7,796 nucleotides of DNA from Naegleria gruberi (taxonomy: Eukaryota): the NCBI GenBank assembly GCA_000004985.1, contig GG739107.1. One strand, 5' to 3'. A program made the position numbers and the translations under genes. Every line of letters begins with the position of its first letter. Position 1 is the stretch's first letter. The notes under the pieces are model-generated. The model was given only the letters and a program-made list of their open reading frames with translations. It was not told the origin of the DNA and made no database searches. Shown here one piece after another: positions 1 through 7,796 of this stretch.

Positions 1-38
1 ATGTAACAACATATCCACCATTATATTTAACACCAACT

Positions 39-225
39 ATGGTAATGGATAAAATGAAAATGGAAGGTATTAGAAAATCTAAATTAACATTTGATCAAAT
101 GATTATTTTATCTTTATTTGCTGGTATATTTAAAGGTGTTGGTTGTACAATGTCTTTATTAACTGCTGGTAATTCTGAATTATTAGAAAAACAAATACCT
201 GGTTTACAAAAATTCTTTTTTGGTG
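39..225 (+). CDS. Formate/nitrite transporter (FNT) family channel, exon 1. The start codon is uncertain: the frame is open back to position 3, and in-frame ATGs lie at 39, 45, 54 and 60.
   Basis: The ORF reads ...KSKLTFDQMIILSLFAGIFKGVGCTMSLLTAGNSELLEKQIPGLQKFFFG, which is an FNT TM1 plus loop. It lies in the same frame (mod 3) as the 399..1184 ORF and is separated from it only by a stop-filled AT repeat. A GTATGT donor sits at 226..231. Codon usage is A/T in the third position. The frame stays open from position 3 (VTTYPPLYLTPT...), so the true 5' end may be upstream of the window. ATGs at 54 and 60 have better AAAATG context than the one at 39. Confidence 0.75.
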
Positions 226-366
226 GTATGTTTTTAATTAATTTAATAATTTTTAATTTAATTTAATAATGTTAAATATAATTTTAAATATAATTTTAAA
301 TATAATTTTAAATTTAATATAATTTTAATAATATAATTTTAATATAATTTTAAATATAAAAAAAAG
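226..366 (+). other. Intron 1 of the FNT gene. It is 141 nt, phase 1, with a GTATGT donor and a ...AAAAAG acceptor.
   Basis: The donor is g226-t227-a228-t229-g230-t231 (GTATGT) and the acceptor AG is at 365-366. The interior is more than 95% A+T, carries stops in all frames and consists of a tandem repeat. The junction codon g225|c367 t368 = GCT (Ala) keeps the frame. The length is typical of short AT-rich dictyostelid-type introns. Confidence 0.7.
274..358. repeat. Imperfect tandem repeat of the 12-mer AAATATAATTTT, about 7 copies, inside the FNT intron.
   Basis: Perfect copies lie at 274-285, 286-297 and 298-309. Variant copies follow (aaatttaatataatttt, aataatataatttt, aatataatttt, aaatataaaa) up to about 358. 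Confidence 0.8.
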
Positions 367-1184
367 CTGTATTTCCAATTAGTTTAATATTAATAACAAT
401 GACAGGATCAGAATTATTTACAGGTAATGTATTAGTAGTATTAGTTGGATTATTTTCAAGAAAATGGAGAGCTAAGAAATTTTTTATTCATTTATTACAA
501 TTTTTAAAAAATATAATATTATCATATATATTTAATTTAATTGGAGCATTTTTAATGGCATATTTATTTATATATTTAACACAACCATGTTGTGATTCAC
601 ATTGGATTGAATATGTTAAACATTTATCAGAATTAAAAACAAGTAGAACATTTGGTTCATGTTTATTATTAGGTATTATATGTAATATGTTAGTTACAAT
701 GGCTACTTATAATGCTTTAGCTGCTACTACTTTAGAAGGTAAAATATTAGGTATTTGGTTTCCTATTATGGTATTTGTATCATGTTCATTTGAACATTCT
801 GTTGCTAATGCTTATTTTATACCTTTAGGAATGTTATATGGTGCTAATGTTACAATGTATGATTTTATTGTTAAAAATTTAATACCTGCTACTTTAGGTA
901 ATATCATTGGTGGTGCTTTTATTATTGGTTGCTTATTTTATTATGTTAATGATTATAGAAATAGACATAATAGATTCATTTTTAATTTTATTGAAAAAAT
1001 TTGGAAATATTTAAAAAAATCAAATTTATTAAGTAATACTAGATTTAATTCAATGAATGATAATGATAATTTAACAACAACAACAAATAATGCTGATGCT
1101 GATGATGAATATGATGAGGAGGAAGATTTGAAATCTGATTTGGATTTCCTTGAAGTTAAAAATAAACAACAAGATGTCATTTAA
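367..1184 (+). CDS. Formate/nitrite transporter (FNT) family channel, exon 2, including the TAA stop at 1182..1184.
   Basis: The spliced product continues ...FFFG-A-VFPISLILITMTGSELFTGNVLVV... It shows FNT hallmarks: the GSELFTGN motif (FocA G-ADLFT), FEHSVANAYFIPLG with the conserved central His (FocA FEHSIANMF), and NLIPATLGNIIGGAFIIG (FocA NLIPVTIGNIIGG). The FocA comparison sequences are recalled from memory. Six or more hydrophobic helices are consistent with the FNT fold. A 78-aa acidic/Asn-rich C-terminal tail (948..1181) is typical of dictyostelid low complexity. Confidence 0.85.
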
Positions 1185-1290: not shown

Positions 1291-1476
1291 ATGAAAAAAC
1301 AAAAGTCTGATGCTTCTTCATCAAAGAAAGATAAATCATCAAGTGCATTGAATAAAGAGGACGATGATGATCAGTGCCATGCCATCTCATGTGTTCGTTG
1401 TCGACGTCTACATAAAAAGTGTAACAAGAAATTGCCTTCTTGTTCGAAATGTATTTCCGATGGAGTGGAATGTAAT
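1291..1476 (+). CDS. Zn(II)2Cys6 binuclear-cluster DNA-binding domain protein, exon 1 (5' partial gene). The remainder is lost in the assembly gap.
   Basis: MKKQKSDASSSKKDKSSSALNKEDDDDQCHAISCVRCRRLHKKCNKKLPSCSKCISDGVECN has the spacing C-x2-C-x6-C-x6-C-x2-C-x6-C, the canonical Zn2Cys6 (GAL4-type) pattern, with basic residues between Cys2 and Cys3. The start context is aaaaaaaATGaaa. The in-frame GTATGT donor at 1477..1482 falls exactly after ...GVECN (phase 0), and in-frame stops follow soon after, consistent with an intron running into the gap. Confidence 0.7.
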
Positions 1477-1568
1477 GTATGTTTTGATCAAAGAATACAA
1501 AATTATATAATCAACTGATAACTTATAACTGATAATTGTATTGTGGGGATTGTAGTATAGTACTCCTT

Positions 1569-4500
1569 NNNNNNNNNNNNNNNNNNNNNNNNNNNNNNNN
1601 NNNNNNNNNNNNNNNNNNNNNNNNNNNNNNNNNNNNNNNNNNNNNNNNNNNNNNNNNNNNNNNNNNNNNNNNNNNNNNNNNNNNNNNNNNNNNNNNNNNN
1701 NNNNNNNNNNNNNNNNNNNNNNNNNNNNNNNNNNNNNNNNNNNNNNNNNNNNNNNNNNNNNNNNNNNNNNNNNNNNNNNNNNNNNNNNNNNNNNNNNNNN
1801 NNNNNNNNNNNNNNNNNNNNNNNNNNNNNNNNNNNNNNNNNNNNNNNNNNNNNNNNNNNNNNNNNNNNNNNNNNNNNNNNNNNNNNNNNNNNNNNNNNNN
1901 NNNNNNNNNNNNNNNNNNNNNNNNNNNNNNNNNNNNNNNNNNNNNNNNNNNNNNNNNNNNNNNNNNNNNNNNNNNNNNNNNNNNNNNNNNNNNNNNNNNN
2001 NNNNNNNNNNNNNNNNNNNNNNNNNNNNNNNNNNNNNNNNNNNNNNNNNNNNNNNNNNNNNNNNNNNNNNNNNNNNNNNNNNNNNNNNNNNNNNNNNNNN
2101 NNNNNNNNNNNNNNNNNNNNNNNNNNNNNNNNNNNNNNNNNNNNNNNNNNNNNNNNNNNNNNNNNNNNNNNNNNNNNNNNNNNNNNNNNNNNNNNNNNNN
2201 NNNNNNNNNNNNNNNNNNNNNNNNNNNNNNNNNNNNNNNNNNNNNNNNNNNNNNNNNNNNNNNNNNNNNNNNNNNNNNNNNNNNNNNNNNNNNNNNNNNN
2301 NNNNNNNNNNNNNNNNNNNNNNNNNNNNNNNNNNNNNNNNNNNNNNNNNNNNNNNNNNNNNNNNNNNNNNNNNNNNNNNNNNNNNNNNNNNNNNNNNNNN
2401 NNNNNNNNNNNNNNNNNNNNNNNNNNNNNNNNNNNNNNNNNNNNNNNNNNNNNNNNNNNNNNNNNNNNNNNNNNNNNNNNNNNNNNNNNNNNNNNNNNNN
2501 NNNNNNNNNNNNNNNNNNNNNNNNNNNNNNNNNNNNNNNNNNNNNNNNNNNNNNNNNNNNNNNNNNNNNNNNNNNNNNNNNNNNNNNNNNNNNNNNNNNN
2601 NNNNNNNNNNNNNNNNNNNNNNNNNNNNNNNNNNNNNNNNNNNNNNNNNNNNNNNNNNNNNNNNNNNNNNNNNNNNNNNNNNNNNNNNNNNNNNNNNNNN
2701 NNNNNNNNNNNNNNNNNNNNNNNNNNNNNNNNNNNNNNNNNNNNNNNNNNNNNNNNNNNNNNNNNNNNNNNNNNNNNNNNNNNNNNNNNNNNNNNNNNNN
2801 NNNNNNNNNNNNNNNNNNNNNNNNNNNNNNNNNNNNNNNNNNNNNNNNNNNNNNNNNNNNNNNNNNNNNNNNNNNNNNNNNNNNNNNNNNNNNNNNNNNN
2901 NNNNNNNNNNNNNNNNNNNNNNNNNNNNNNNNNNNNNNNNNNNNNNNNNNNNNNNNNNNNNNNNNNNNNNNNNNNNNNNNNNNNNNNNNNNNNNNNNNNN
3001 NNNNNNNNNNNNNNNNNNNNNNNNNNNNNNNNNNNNNNNNNNNNNNNNNNNNNNNNNNNNNNNNNNNNNNNNNNNNNNNNNNNNNNNNNNNNNNNNNNNN
3101 NNNNNNNNNNNNNNNNNNNNNNNNNNNNNNNNNNNNNNNNNNNNNNNNNNNNNNNNNNNNNNNNNNNNNNNNNNNNNNNNNNNNNNNNNNNNNNNNNNNN
3201 NNNNNNNNNNNNNNNNNNNNNNNNNNNNNNNNNNNNNNNNNNNNNNNNNNNNNNNNNNNNNNNNNNNNNNNNNNNNNNNNNNNNNNNNNNNNNNNNNNNN
3301 NNNNNNNNNNNNNNNNNNNNNNNNNNNNNNNNNNNNNNNNNNNNNNNNNNNNNNNNNNNNNNNNNNNNNNNNNNNNNNNNNNNNNNNNNNNNNNNNNNNN
3401 NNNNNNNNNNNNNNNNNNNNNNNNNNNNNNNNNNNNNNNNNNNNNNNNNNNNNNNNNNNNNNNNNNNNNNNNNNNNNNNNNNNNNNNNNNNNNNNNNNNN
3501 NNNNNNNNNNNNNNNNNNNNNNNNNNNNNNNNNNNNNNNNNNNNNNNNNNNNNNNNNNNNNNNNNNNNNNNNNNNNNNNNNNNNNNNNNNNNNNNNNNNN
3601 NNNNNNNNNNNNNNNNNNNNNNNNNNNNNNNNNNNNNNNNNNNNNNNNNNNNNNNNNNNNNNNNNNNNNNNNNNNNNNNNNNNNNNNNNNNNNNNNNNNN
3701 NNNNNNNNNNNNNNNNNNNNNNNNNNNNNNNNNNNNNNNNNNNNNNNNNNNNNNNNNNNNNNNNNNNNNNNNNNNNNNNNNNNNNNNNNNNNNNNNNNNN
3801 NNNNNNNNNNNNNNNNNNNNNNNNNNNNNNNNNNNNNNNNNNNNNNNNNNNNNNNNNNNNNNNNNNNNNNNNNNNNNNNNNNNNNNNNNNNNNNNNNNNN
3901 NNNNNNNNNNNNNNNNNNNNNNNNNNNNNNNNNNNNNNNNNNNNNNNNNNNNNNNNNNNNNNNNNNNNNNNNNNNNNNNNNNNNNNNNNNNNNNNNNNNN
4001 NNNNNNNNNNNNNNNNNNNNNNNNNNNNNNNNNNNNNNNNNNNNNNNNNNNNNNNNNNNNNNNNNNNNNNNNNNNNNNNNNNNNNNNNNNNNNNNNNNNN
4101 NNNNNNNNNNNNNNNNNNNNNNNNNNNNNNNNNNNNNNNNNNNNNNNNNNNNNNNNNNNNNNNNNNNNNNNNNNNNNNNNNNNNNNNNNNNNNNNNNNNN
4201 NNNNNNNNNNNNNNNNNNNNNNNNNNNNNNNNNNNNNNNNNNNNNNNNNNNNNNNNNNNNNNNNNNNNNNNNNNNNNNNNNNNNNNNNNNNNNNNNNNNN
4301 NNNNNNNNNNNNNNNNNNNNNNNNNNNNNNNNNNNNNNNNNNNNNNNNNNNNNNNNNNNNNNNNNNNNNNNNNNNNNNNNNNNNNNNNNNNNNNNNNNNN
4401 NNNNNNNNNNNNNNNNNNNNNNNNNNNNNNNNNNNNNNNNNNNNNNNNNNNNNNNNNNNNNNNNNNNNNNNNNNNNNNNNNNNNNNNNNNNNNNNNNNNN

Positions 4501-6216
4501 NNNNNNNNNNNNNNNNNNNNNNNNNNNNNNNNNNNNNNNNNNNNNNNNNNNNNNNNNNNNNNNNNNNNNNNNNNNNNNNNNNNNNNNNNNNNNNNNNNNN
4601 NNNNNNNNNNNNNNNNNNNNNNNNNNNNNNNNNNNNNNNNNNNNNNNNNNNNNNNNNNNNNNNNNNNNNNNNNNNNNNNNNNNNNNNNNNNNNNNNNNNN
4701 NNNNNNNNNNNNNNNNNNNNNNNNNNNNNNNNNNNNNNNNNNNNNNNNNNNNNNNNNNNNNNNNNNNNNNNNNNNNNNNNNNNNNNNNNNNNNNNNNNNN
4801 NNNNNNNNNNNNNNNNNNNNNNNNNNNNNNNNNNNNNNNNNNNNNNNNNNNNNNNNNNNNNNNNNNNNNNNNNNNNNNNNNNNNNNNNNNNNNNNNNNNN
4901 NNNNNNNNNNNNNNNNNNNNNNNNNNNNNNNNNNNNNNNNNNNNNNNNNNNNNNNNNNNNNNNNNNNNNNNNNNNNNNNNNNNNNNNNNNNNNNNNNNNN
5001 NNNNNNNNNNNNNNNNNNNNNNNNNNNNNNNNNNNNNNNNNNNNNNNNNNNNNNNNNNNNNNNNNNNNNNNNNNNNNNNNNNNNNNNNNNNNNNNNNNNN
5101 NNNNNNNNNNNNNNNNNNNNNNNNNNNNNNNNNNNNNNNNNNNNNNNNNNNNNNNNNNNNNNNNNNNNNNNNNNNNNNNNNNNNNNNNNNNNNNNNNNNN
5201 NNNNNNNNNNNNNNNNNNNNNNNNNNNNNNNNNNNNNNNNNNNNNNNNNNNNNNNNNNNNNNNNNNNNNNNNNNNNNNNNNNNNNNNNNNNNNNNNNNNN
5301 NNNNNNNNNNNNNNNNNNNNNNNNNNNNNNNNNNNNNNNNNNNNNNNNNNNNNNNNNNNNNNNNNNNNNNNNNNNNNNNNNNNNNNNNNNNNNNNNNNNN
5401 NNNNNNNNNNNNNNNNNNNNNNNNNNNNNNNNNNNNNNNNNNNNNNNNNNNNNNNNNNNNNNNNNNNNNNNNNNNNNNNNNNNNNNNNNNNNNNNNNNNN
5501 NNNNNNNNNNNNNNNNNNNNNNNNNNNNNNNNNNNNNNNNNNNNNNNNNNNNNNNNNNNNNNNNNNNNNNNNNNNNNNNNNNNNNNNNNNNNNNNNNNNN
5601 NNNNNNNNNNNNNNNNNNNNNNNNNNNNNNNNNNNNNNNNNNNNNNNNNNNNNNNNNNNNNNNNNNNNNNNNNNNNNNNNNNNNNNNNNNNNNNNNNNNN
5701 NNNNNNNNNNNNNNNNNNNNNNNNNNNNNNNNNNNNNNNNNNNNNNNNNNNNNNNNNNNNNNNNNNNNNNNNNNNNNNNNNNNNNNNNNNNNNNNNNNNN
5801 NNNNNNNNNNNNNNNNNNNNNNNNNNNNNNNNNNNNNNNNNNNNNNNNNNNNNNNNNNNNNNNNNNNNNNNNNNNNNNNNNNNNNNNNNNNNNNNNNNNN
5901 NNNNNNNNNNNNNNNNNNNNNNNNNNNNNNNNNNNNNNNNNNNNNNNNNNNNNNNNNNNNNNNNNNNNNNNNNNNNNNNNNNNNNNNNNNNNNNNNNNNN
6001 NNNNNNNNNNNNNNNNNNNNNNNNNNNNNNNNNNNNNNNNNNNNNNNNNNNNNNNNNNNNNNNNNNNNNNNNNNNNNNNNNNNNNNNNNNNNNNNNNNNN
6101 NNNNNNNNNNNNNNNNNNNNNNNNNNNNNNNNNNNNNNNNNNNNNNNNNNNNNNNNNNNNNNNNNNNNNNNNNNNNNNNNNNNNNNNNNNNNNNNNNNNN
6201 NNNNNNNNNNNNNNNN
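1569..6216. other. Assembly gap: a run of 4648 N.
   Basis: Literal n characters from 1569 to 6216. The 1650-aa and 1562-aa ORFs spanning it are X-translations and not real. Confidence 0.99.
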
Positions 6217-6455
6217 GGATTTAATTTTAAATATTTTTCAGATTTTAAATCCTGACATCTCTTTGATAAATTAATAATTTCAACTTGATGAATATTTTGA
6301 GTATTTGTATTATTTAATAATTCACCTAAAATAATACGTGGTATCATACCAGCTGTTGATGGTATACTATATATAGTAAATTTTAATGGTTGATTAATAT
6401 CAATGGAAGAGTGGAGATCAACATGTTGTTGATCAATAGTTTGATGTTGAGACAT
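6217..6455 (-). CDS. GST N-terminal (thioredoxin-fold) domain-like protein, N-terminal exon (3' part in the gap).
   Basis: The minus-strand ORF starts at ATG 6455..6453 in the context aaaaaaaaATGtct. The protein MSQHQTIDQQHVDLHSSIDINQPLKFTIYSIPSTAGMIPRIILGELLNNTNTQNIHQVEIINLSKRCQDLKSEKYLKLN shows a beta-1-like 'LKFTIYSIPS', a helix 'RIILGEL' and the GST-N signature '...SEKYLKLNP'. The last two bases before the gap (cc on minus) begin a Pro codon. The family call rests on motif recognition only. Confidence 0.55.
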
Positions 6456-6752: not shown

Positions 6753-7298
6753 TTATTGATTTGGTTTAAAATGAAAGAAAACCAAATTATTACAATCCTG
6801 TCTTTTACCTTCACTATAAGTATGAAATTGCCATGGTGATTCTTTTGAAAATGATTGTGATGATGTATTACCTCTCATTGTTGCTTTTCTTTTTTTAGTA
6901 ATTTTACTACCACTAGTTGTTGTAGTTGAATTGGATGTTGGAGTATTGTTGGTTGGTGATAAACTTGTTGATTGACTTGATGATGATGTAATGTTTGTAT
7001 TAATATTATTATTGAATGTTCGTTTTTTACATGATTTTTTAGCCTCTTTTACAAAATTGGAATTTTTAGATGGTGAAAAATTAATAAAATTATTATTATT
7101 GGATGTAGTGGATGTGGTATTATTATTGTTAATATTAATATTATTATTAATATTGGATGATTGAATGTTATTATTACTCGAAAAATTATTATTTGGGTCA
7201 AAATTGTAAAATGTGAAAATTGGTTGATTGGCAGTATTATTATTTGTAATATTATTATTAATATTATTGTAATATTCAATAGAATATGATGTTTCCAT
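6753..7298 (-). CDS. Asn/Thr/Ser-rich low-complexity protein with basic KKRK-type patches (hypothetical). The frame is open a further 29 codons upstream, to about 7386.
   Basis: A 181-aa minus-strand ORF (METSYSIEYYNNINNNITNNN...KKSCKKRTF...SGSKITKKRKATMRGN...KPNQ*). Codon composition (AAT, ACA, TCA, CCA) is typical of dictyostelid poly-N/T/S coding. Overlapping frames (7049..7357 -) are repeat shadows. The start is uncertain because the context ccaATGg is not A-rich and there is in-frame sense sequence upstream. Confidence 0.45.
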   Translation of the reverse strand: METSYSIEYYNNINNNITNNNTANQPIFTFYNFDPNNNFSSNNNIQSSNINNNININNNNTTSTTSNNNNFINFSPSKNSNFVKEAKKSCKKRTFNNNINTNITSSSSQSTSLSPTNNTPTSNSTTTTSGSKITKKRKATMRGNTSSQSFSKESPWQFHTYSEGKRQDCNNLVFFHFKPNQ

Positions 7299-7436
7299 TG
7301 GAGGTGATGAAACAGTTGTAGATGATTTAATTGGTGATGATGCAATTGTATGATCATTATTGGATTGTGTTATTGATGATGGATTATTATATTATTAAAT
7401 GTATTATTTGATGTATTTAATGTAATATTATTACTG

Positions 7437-7450
7437 TTATTATTATTATT
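7437..7450. repeat. Short (TTA)n / (ATT)n microsatellite. It is one of many AAT/ATT trinucleotide runs across 6950..7680.
   Basis: ttattattattatt at 7437..7450. Similar runs lie at 7085..7096, 7118..7127 and 7551..7562. They reflect poly-Asn/Ile codon repeats. Confidence 0.5.
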
Positions 7451-7508
7451 GGATGATTGAATATTAAAATGTGGAATGTCAACTGTTGCCATTGCGCATG
7501 TAAAATTA

Positions 7509-7796
7509 TTATTTGACATGGAAGATTGCCGGAGTGGTAACAGTATTATTATTATTACAATTATGATTATTATTAATAGTAGCAGTAGTAGCAGTATTAT
7601 TATTGGATGTAGTATTTGTAGTATTAATATTATTATTGGATGTAGTATTAATAGTAGTGGTGGTATTTAAATGTGGAGTATTATAAACTTCATGGTTACC
7701 ATTTTTAGAGGATGATGACAATGTATGAAAATAATTATCTATTTCCACCATTTCATCACTATTAAAACATGTTTGTAGTATTATATTAGAATTAGA
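7509..7796 (-). CDS. Partial Asn/Thr-rich ORF, open to the window's 3' edge. It may be a separate upstream gene or part of the same locus as 6753..7298.
   Basis: The minus frame is open from 7796 (…SNSNIILQTCFNSDEMVEIDNYFHTLSSSSKNGNHEVYNTPHLNTTTTINTTSNNNINTTNTTSNNNTATTATINNNHNCNNNNTVTTPAIFHVK*) with a TAA stop at 7511..7509. It has the same strand and compositional style as the downstream ORF. Confidence 0.3.
   Translation of the reverse strand, partial: SNSNIILQTCFNSDEMVEIDNYFHTLSSSSKNGNHEVYNTPHLNTTTTINTTSNNNINTTNTTSNNNTATTATINNNHNCNNNNTVTTPAIFHVK

Follow-up and report, generated by a model that had tools for sequence, protein, structure and literature searches.

Nucleotides 3 to 1184 on the plus strand of the window (the whole stretch of DNA analysed here, a Naegleria gruberi scaffold of 7796 nt) very likely belong to a spliced nuclear gene of the formate/nitrite transporter (FNT) family, of which the 3' two-thirds or more are present and the 5' end is cut off. 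An exhaustive HMMER search revealed that this gene is represented in public databases by a 'predicted protein' of 161 aa, which is 100% identical to the last 161 residues of the product described here and starts at an internal methionine, Met174. The main yield of our analysis was the correction of this gene model, which grew from 161 to at least 346 aa and is still 5'-incomplete. The features of the gene are listed in Table 1.

Two open reading frames (ORFs) in the ORF listing, 39..266 and 399..1184, lay in one common frame on the plus strand, and joining of nucleotides 39 to 225 with the terminal exon gave a spliced product of 334 aa when counted from the methionine encoded at nt 39 (M39), from which residues are numbered throughout. 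An earlier note on this DNA, made from its letters and ORFs, had proposed that the two same-frame ORFs were separated by a phase-1 intron of 141 nt with a GTATGT donor at 226 and an AG acceptor at 365-366, and all of these points were confirmed. Among 30 frame-preserving GT..AG pairs in the region, the 225|367 junction suggested by the note was the only collinear one and probably represents the true splice: it alone yielded QKFFFG|AVFPISLI, a junction that was free of indels and collinear with both Naegleria (LQKFFFGAVFPIGLIL) and bacterial (LQKFFFGAVFPLGLIL) homologues. Another donor, GTGGTA at 223, would give FFF|AVFP; it was rejected because it drops a Gly found in all homologues and is the weaker donor. 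The G+C content of the intron was 2.8%, compared with 23-25% in the exons, and reading through it in the frame of the first exon gave 13 stops. It was longer than the corresponding introns of homologues (40-86 nt) because of a tandem repeat within it.

Table 1. Features of the FNT gene in the window (nt positions in the 7796-nt scaffold; residues counted from M39)
Feature	Position (nt)	Strand	Basis
5'-incomplete coding exon: N-terminal amphipathic segment, TM1, start of TM2a	3..225	+	No stop from nt 3 to 225
Lys13, nearly invariant Lys (K25 in 346-aa numbering)	75..77	+	Alignment conservation
Spliceosomal intron, GTATGT...AG, phase 1, 141 nt, within Ala63 codon	226..366	+	GTATGT at 226, AG at 365-366
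Tandem repeat in intron: 12-nt unit ATAATTTTAAAT, 9.3 copies	246..359	+	Tandem Repeats Finder (TRF)
Terminal coding exon: TM2a to TM6, C-terminal helix, tail; TAA stop at 1182..1184	367..1184	+	ORF, Pfam match, AF2 model
Thr81, central pore Thr of omega loop (ELFTGN), equivalent to PfFNT Thr106	420..422	+	Alignment, PMC8428694
SRKWRAKKFF, basic insertion of 6-7 residues after TM2b, heterolobosean-specific	456..485	+	Missing in bacterial relatives, LCIA, PfFNT and FocA
QPCC motif, TM3-TM4 loop	582..593	+	Conserved in 7/8 heterolobosean group-A sequences
Lys153, invariant Lys before TM4, equivalent to PfFNT Lys177 (K165 in 346-aa numbering)	636..638	+	Invariant in 118 sequences
Public gene model EFC35619.1 / XP_002668363.1 / NAEGRDRAFT_76723 / UniProt D2W5N2, 161 aa, 'predicted protein'	699..1184	+	100% identity to last 161 residues
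FEHSVANAYF motif	from 789	+	Present as quoted in the earlier note
His206, central pore His of S loop (SFEHSVAN), equivalent to PfFNT His230	795..797	+	Alignment, PMC8428694
Motif NLIPATLGNIIGG	876..914	+	Present as quoted in the earlier note
NDYRNRHNRFIFNFIEKIWKYLKK, C-terminal helix continuous with TM6, residues 257-280, conserved in group A	948..1019	+	Alignment, AF2 model
Asn/Asp/Glu-rich tail, predicted disordered	1020..1181	+	Composition; pLDDT below 50
Distal motif DLDFLE inside tail	1137..1154	+	L-E aligned in all group-A sequences with a tail reaching that far

The reading of this gene as a spliced member of the FNT family was borne out by the Pfam search that the earlier note had proposed. 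Against PF01226 (Form_Nir_trans), the spliced 334-aa product gave an E-value of 3.2e-69 and 233.4 bits (cut-off 34.6) over profile positions 2-240 of 240, i.e., a full-length match above the curated threshold of the FNT family (PF01226; TCDB 1.A.16). A comparison with FocA that the note had drawn held in a HMMER alignment to V. cholerae FocA, and both of the FNT motifs that it quoted were found. Among proteins of solved structure, the best sequence matches were Chlamydomonas LciA (E=1.4e-35, 126 bits) and Plasmodium falciparum PfFNT (7e-31, 110 bits), followed by FocA, HSC and NirC (E=1e-23 to 4e-16; 87 bits for FocA). The AlphaFold2 (AF2) model, which was built for the exon-2 product only (271 aa, TM2-TM6) from a 119-sequence alignment, had a mean pLDDT of 80.2; over TM2-TM6 it agreed with the aquaporin-like six-TM fold with broken TM2 and TM5, in that FNT channels made up all of the best 50 Foldseek matches from the PDB (TM-score about 0.58). 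Scores for NCBIfam models fell below their cut-offs. For TIGR00790 'fnt', a model trained on prokaryotes, the product obtained 203.2 bits (cut-off 232.3), whereas bacterial relatives (P0010-P0069) passed with 258-279 bits; for the FocA equivalogs TIGR04060 and NF008069 it obtained 141 and 96 bits (cut-offs 290.1 and 440, respectively), and for the NirC equivalog NF008595, 80.7 bits (cut-off 293). Since these cut-offs were missed, no characterised subfamily, and hence no substrate, could be assigned, which agrees with the note's view that the substrate cannot be read from the sequence.

The closest relatives of the protein came from N. lovaniensis (67-71% identity), N. fowleri, and Willaertia and an N. 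gruberi paralogue (51-54% for the latter two), while other heterolobosean paralogues and an Acrasis kona protein were more distant. In a neighbor-joining (NJ) tree (174 sequences, 244 columns, 100 bootstraps), the window gene paired with two N. lovaniensis proteins (P0001 and P0002) at 91% within a Naegleria/Willaertia cluster that had 100% support, and Acrasis joined this cluster at 56%. We refer to the cluster as group A, which was defined in this analysis and is not a curated family. The marks that fall within the scaffold were present in the window gene: the basic insertion, QPCC, the C-terminal helix, an intron in the Ala codon of FFFG-A-VFP, and monophyly. Within this heterolobosean paralogue group, its N. 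lovaniensis counterparts are C9374_001649/C9374_006145. These two N. lovaniensis proteins (P0001, 489 aa, and P0002, 475 aa), both named 'Formate/nitrite transporter' in UniRef, share with it the basic insertion, QPCC, the C-terminal helix, the distal L-E motif and the Ala-codon intron. However, their intron, at 55-86 nt and in phase 2, differs from that of the window gene (141 nt, phase 1); two additional introns (KGV|ACT and GML|YGA) have no counterpart in the window gene; and their N-terminal extensions of ~170 aa are visible, whereas that of the window gene is cut off.

Exon structures of the homologues were derived from genomic loci for N. lovaniensis P0001, P0002 and P0004 and W. magna P0005 and P0006. 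All five genes had an intron in the same FFFG-A-VFP Ala codon, in phase 2 (GC|GT...AG|N), whereas that of the window gene was in phase 1 (G|GT...AG|CT), a shift of 1 nt. Because the same codon is interrupted in all five homologues, the intron is older than the separation of Naegleria and Willaertia and than the duplications within group A, and in N. gruberi it sits one nucleotide away and has grown through the tandem repeat. The shared position also implies that the gene has long been resident in the lineage, and within Heterolobosea it is clearly old and vertically inherited. An FNT phylogeny, which the note had suggested for distinguishing vertical from horizontal origin, was informative within Heterolobosea but not at greater depth, where every node had less than 20% NJ support. 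In Heterolobosea, the FNT family comprises several paralogues, bears additions specific to the clade and has an old intron. Public databases already contain automatically annotated FNT homologues from Naegleria, and a search of the literature for FNT or pyruvate formate-lyase in Naegleria found nothing specific.

The start at nt 39 given in the earlier note is very doubtful, since the ATG there is only the first one in the window. The frame of the first exon was free of stops back to nt 3, the first full codon of the scaffold. Moreover, the 12 residues upstream of M39 (VTTYPPLYLTPT) aligned with TTSSYPSIVLFNTPFQ of N. lovaniensis P0001 and TTHFPSIVLFNTPFQ of the second N. lovaniensis orthologue (pattern TT.YP...L..TP), and roughly 90-190 extra residues preceded the M39-equivalent point in all seven full-length group-A homologues. 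Because of the open frame, the aligned upstream residues and the longer homologues, the gene almost certainly continues past the 5' end of the scaffold. M39 is very probably not the true start, so the 334-aa protein would be N-terminally incomplete, and the true start, with an extension of ~90-190 residues, probably lies beyond the 5' end of the 7796-bp scaffold. A gene that is complete in the window and begins at M39 would be consistent with the presence of the ATG, with the Pfam profile match, which begins at residue 2 of the M39 product, and with the bacterial relatives, which begin only ~10 residues upstream of the equivalent point; in view of the three observations above and the fact that the window begins at a scaffold end, we consider a 334-aa protein improbable. 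A non-functional fragment, i.e., a pseudogene or partial duplicate on a small scaffold, also seems very unlikely: the gene does lie at the very end of a scaffold of 7.8 kb, 60% of which is gap, and its intron is enlarged by a tandem repeat, but 346 codons are open across the splice, all columns invariant in 118 FNTs are kept, and the C-terminal helix and distal motif are conserved.

With regard to origin, the note had described a resident nuclear gene with host codon usage rather than bacterial contamination. This was upheld by the position of the intron, shared within 1 nt with the five heterolobosean homologues, and by the GC3 of the coding sequence (8.7%), which was close to that of the neighbouring ORF (8.9%) and far from that of bacterial relatives (32-55%). 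In our first search, among the matches listed, only bacteria (Marinifilaceae and Deltaproteobacteria, ~42% identity) appeared beyond Heterolobosea, as would be expected of a bacterial contaminant or a very recent transfer, e.g., from Bacteroidota. However, an exhaustive search revealed equally close eukaryotic FNTs in Acrasis, Pigoraptor, Gonapodya and Basidiobolus, and on this ground, together with the low NJ support beyond Heterolobosea, a transfer from Bacteroidota was dropped. Considering also the spliceosomal intron, which is older than the Naegleria-Willaertia split, the host-like GC3 and the flanking eukaryotic genes, a recent bacterial source of any kind is extremely unlikely. The note had further placed the gene in an 'amoebozoan-type genome', whereas N. 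gruberi belongs to Discoba (Heterolobosea) and the nearest relatives of the protein are FNTs of Naegleria, Willaertia and Acrasis. Composition would fit a dictyostelid-like genome, whether this were the true source or had contributed a contaminating scaffold to the Naegleria assembly: the window has 24% G+C (with a run of 4648 N at 1569..6216) and a GC3 near 9% and carries Asn-rich ORFs of low complexity, three traits that resemble Dictyostelium, and its G+C content is well below the genome mean of 35% reported for N. gruberi. Nevertheless, no amoebozoan protein was found among the best 120 matches listed or the 20 named representatives, the FNT nests in the fully supported Naegleria/Willaertia clade next to the N. 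lovaniensis paralogues, and the intron codon is common to Naegleria and Willaertia genes. In addition, the scaffold was deposited as N. gruberi, and its amino-acid bias fits the N. gruberi paralogue P0007. An amoebozoan origin is therefore scarcely credible, and we regard the gene as a long-standing resident of the Naegleria nucleus. In the remainder of the window, no homologue was found for the neighbouring ORF of 79 aa (6455..6219, minus strand), Rfam and tRNA scans were empty, and exact 50-mer searches of genome and metagenome contigs gave no match.

Residue equivalences were obtained by combining an alignment to PfFNT with the structure paper, which describes a central pair (Thr106/His230) and two constrictions in the pore of that protein (PMC8428694). 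The earlier note had recommended inspecting the selectivity-filter residues after alignment, and these were found to match PfFNT, including the central Thr and His of the FNT pore (Thr81 and His206), both constrictions and Lys153. Two hydrophobic constrictions, as in other FNTs, were recognizable. The extracellular one (Phe65/Phe199/Ala209) was identical to that of PfFNT (Phe90/Phe223/Ala233); in the intracellular one, Leu79/Val172 were identical to Leu104/Val196, and Leu69 occupied the place of PfFNT Phe94, a position described as variable (PMC8428694). Gly82 corresponded to PfFNT Gly107, the residue mutated in drug resistance. The nearly invariant Lys13 can be equated, by extrapolation and not by alignment, with PfFNT Lys35, which sits in the cytosolic vestibule (PMC11513924).

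Several features outside the pore were also observed. Judging from FNT topology, the basic insertion SRKWRAKKFF would be cytoplasmic and the loop carrying QPCC probably extracellular or lumenal. The acidic, Asn-rich C-terminal tail of 78 aa noted earlier proved to be of low complexity only in part: residues 257-280 form a conserved helix, and a distal D-L-E motif is conserved as well. In the AF2 model, the helix at 163-231 of the exon-2 product had a pLDDT of about 71-88.

That the pore residues (Thr81, His206, the two constrictions, Lys13 and Lys153) are conserved suggests that the protein may act as a pentameric channel for weak-acid anions and H+. By analogy with the family, it would assemble into a homopentamer with one separate pore per protomer. 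The conserved Lys13 and Lys153, the latter presumably in the role of PfFNT Lys177, would draw a monovalent weak-acid anion into the vestibule, from where it would cross the constrictions (Phe65/Phe199/Ala209 and Leu69/Leu79/Val172) that flank the central pair of Thr81 and His206, along with a proton or after picking one up. Family membership, exon structure, source organism and the conserved pore residues were shown in this analysis; oligomeric state, topology and mode of transport are predictions from knowledge of the family.

As for the substrate, our first choice is a small monocarboxylate (formate, acetate or lactate), a guess to which we give an even chance, followed by nitrite or bicarbonate. 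Three hints point to a monocarboxylate: the FocA model gave the protein a higher score (141 bits) than did the NirC one (81 bits), in Marinifilum the gene of a close bacterial relative immediately follows those for pyruvate formate-lyase and the activase of this enzyme (a pflB-pflA-fnt operon), and the Acrasis homologue is automatically named 'formate transporter'. On the other hand, the best solved relative is a bicarbonate transporter, LciA, and not FocA. A role in formate or lactate export also has no physiological support, since a review (PMC6856725) reported that N. gruberi is strictly aerobic and that no fermentation pathway predicted from its genome had been found in it. Both observations, i.e., the rank of LciA (126 bits, against 110 for PfFNT and 87 for FocA) and the absence of fermentation in biochemical work on N. 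gruberi (PMC6856725), would fit a channel of the same fold and pore whose substrate is inorganic, either nitrite or bicarbonate as in algal NAR1/LciA, or HS-. Such a substrate is possible but on the unlikely side, given that the NirC model ranks below the FocA model, that Leu69 stands at the variable Phe94 position of the intracellular constriction, and that the gene of one close bacterial relative is associated with pyruvate formate-lyase, although none of these points is decisive.

The importance of these results lies mainly in annotation, and they are ordinary findings that should not surprise specialists in transporters or protists. It is a rather doubtful speculation that group-A FNTs could constitute a eukaryotic subfamily of their own that has so far escaped description, marked by an N-terminal extension that is long and disordered, a basic insertion on the cytoplasmic side, a pair of extracellular Cys residues, the conserved C-terminal helix and the distal D-L-E motif; that Naegleria might rely chiefly on them for weak-acid/H+ export; and that inhibitors of the PfFNT type might serve as drugs against the N. 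fowleri orthologue (P0003), given the absence of FNTs from humans and the conservation of the residues that these inhibitors contact in PfFNT (Thr, Gly and His). No paper on a heterolobosean FNT family was found in the literature searched. FNTs are validated antimalarial targets and, to our knowledge, are absent from humans, which makes the orthologue in N. fowleri, a pathogen, a modest lead.

Compared with characterised FNT channels, the window protein has the same fold as the P. falciparum lactate/H+ transporter PfFNT (PDB 6vqq and 7e26; Foldseek E=2e-7), with which it shares a C-terminal helix beyond TM6, the matched pore residues and the equivalent of Lys177. However, the identity between the two is only about 30%, Leu69 replaces Phe94, and the 7-residue basic insertion after TM2b is present only in the window protein. 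Chlamydomonas reinhardtii LciA/NAR1.2 (PDB 9v2a) is the best solved relative by sequence and is also eukaryotic, but it resides in the chloroplast envelope of a photosynthetic alga and has neither the heterolobosean insertion nor the C-terminal helix, and a specific phylogenetic link between the two was unsupported in the NJ tree. With the bacterial FocA, NirC and HSC channels (E. coli, V. cholerae, S. typhimurium and C. difficile), the window protein has in common the Pfam family, the pore architecture and the Thr/His pair. In contrast to these, its gene is not part of an operon and has a eukaryotic structure, and the protein has long terminal extensions and scores far below the NCBIfam equivalog cut-offs.

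Comparison of the FNT (formate/nitrite transporter) gene of the window with five homologues, from N. lovaniensis and W. magna, revealed that an intron interrupts the same codon in all six genes, namely the Ala of FFFG-A-VFP. In the window gene the junctions (225|226 and 366|367) were in phase 1, whereas each of the five homologues carried a phase 2 intron in this Ala codon, so that the two sites are offset by one nucleotide. Borders were canonical (GT..AG) in the window intron and in all five homologue introns, and the phase 1/phase 2 offset possibly reflects intron sliding. This intron is absent from the public gene model, NAEGRDRAFT_76723, which spans less than half of the FNT coding sequence visible on the scaffold.

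A second, more distant group of heterolobosean FNT paralogues has members of 539 aa in N. lovaniensis, 419 aa in W. magna and 263 aa in N. gruberi; these and an FNT of Acrasis kona (293 aa) are proteins P0122, P0123, P0124 and P0125. There are thus at least three FNT genes in N. gruberi. In addition, P0008, from an ENA contig of 1858 nt, and P0009, from a 47-kb Logan contig, are Naegleria-like FNT genes translated through introns, the genes on these environmental or read-archive contigs having been called in prokaryote style. Their sequence degenerates past ...PLGML, where intron 3 lies in N. lovaniensis, and an internal MTGSELF is the start of both P0008 and window ORF 399.

With regard to base composition, the G+C content of the non-N window sequence was 24%, and that of the N. 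gruberi genome has been reported as 35% (PMC9928731). The amino-acid bias of the FNT protein agreed with that of its N. gruberi paralogue P0007.

The positions of these and other features, on the scaffold and in the loci compared, are listed in the table.

Features of the window and of the loci compared
Feature	Sequence	Position	Strand	Remark
Model NAEGRDRAFT_76723	window	699..1184		161 aa, 'predicted protein'
Zn(2)-Cys(6) binuclear cluster gene, first exon	window	1291..1477	+	PF00172, E=1.5e-8
Donor GTATGT of this gene	window	1478	+	
N run	window	1569..6216		4648 N, 60% of scaffold
ORF start, MSQHQTIDQQ...	window	6455..6217	-	79 aa, enters N gap
Several Asn/Thr/Ser-rich low-complexity ORFs	window	6753..7751	-	differing frames
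Homologue intron	L001	6763..6817		
Homologue intron	L002	3778..3863		
Homologue intron	L007	1726..1779		
Homologue intron	L003	3459..3501		
Homologue intron	L008	1561..1600		
Marinifilum flexuosum FNT locus	L004	2747..6867		FNT, PFL-like enzyme, activase

The N run is probably a sized assembly gap, and two long 'ORFs' listed across it were rejected as artefacts of N translation. The Zn(2)-Cys(6) exon, whose domain is of the fungal type, begins 106 nt 3' of the FNT stop, and the gene appears to be spliced at its GTATGT donor before entering the gap. For the 79-aa ORF (GC3 = 8.9%), neither a Pfam match nor a homologue among 5.8 billion proteins was found. The low-complexity ORFs are possibly exons of a single gene extending to the 3' end of the scaffold; the one that was searched (6753..7298) had no Pfam match.

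Among bacterial FNT relatives, a deltaproteobacterial one (L005, L006) was found without glycyl-radical enzyme or activase neighbours. The FNT of M. flexuosum, which shared approximately 40% identity with the window protein, lies directly 3' of two genes, one for a PFL-like glycyl-radical enzyme and the other for a radical-SAM activase, an arrangement apparently representing a pflB-pflA-fnt operon.
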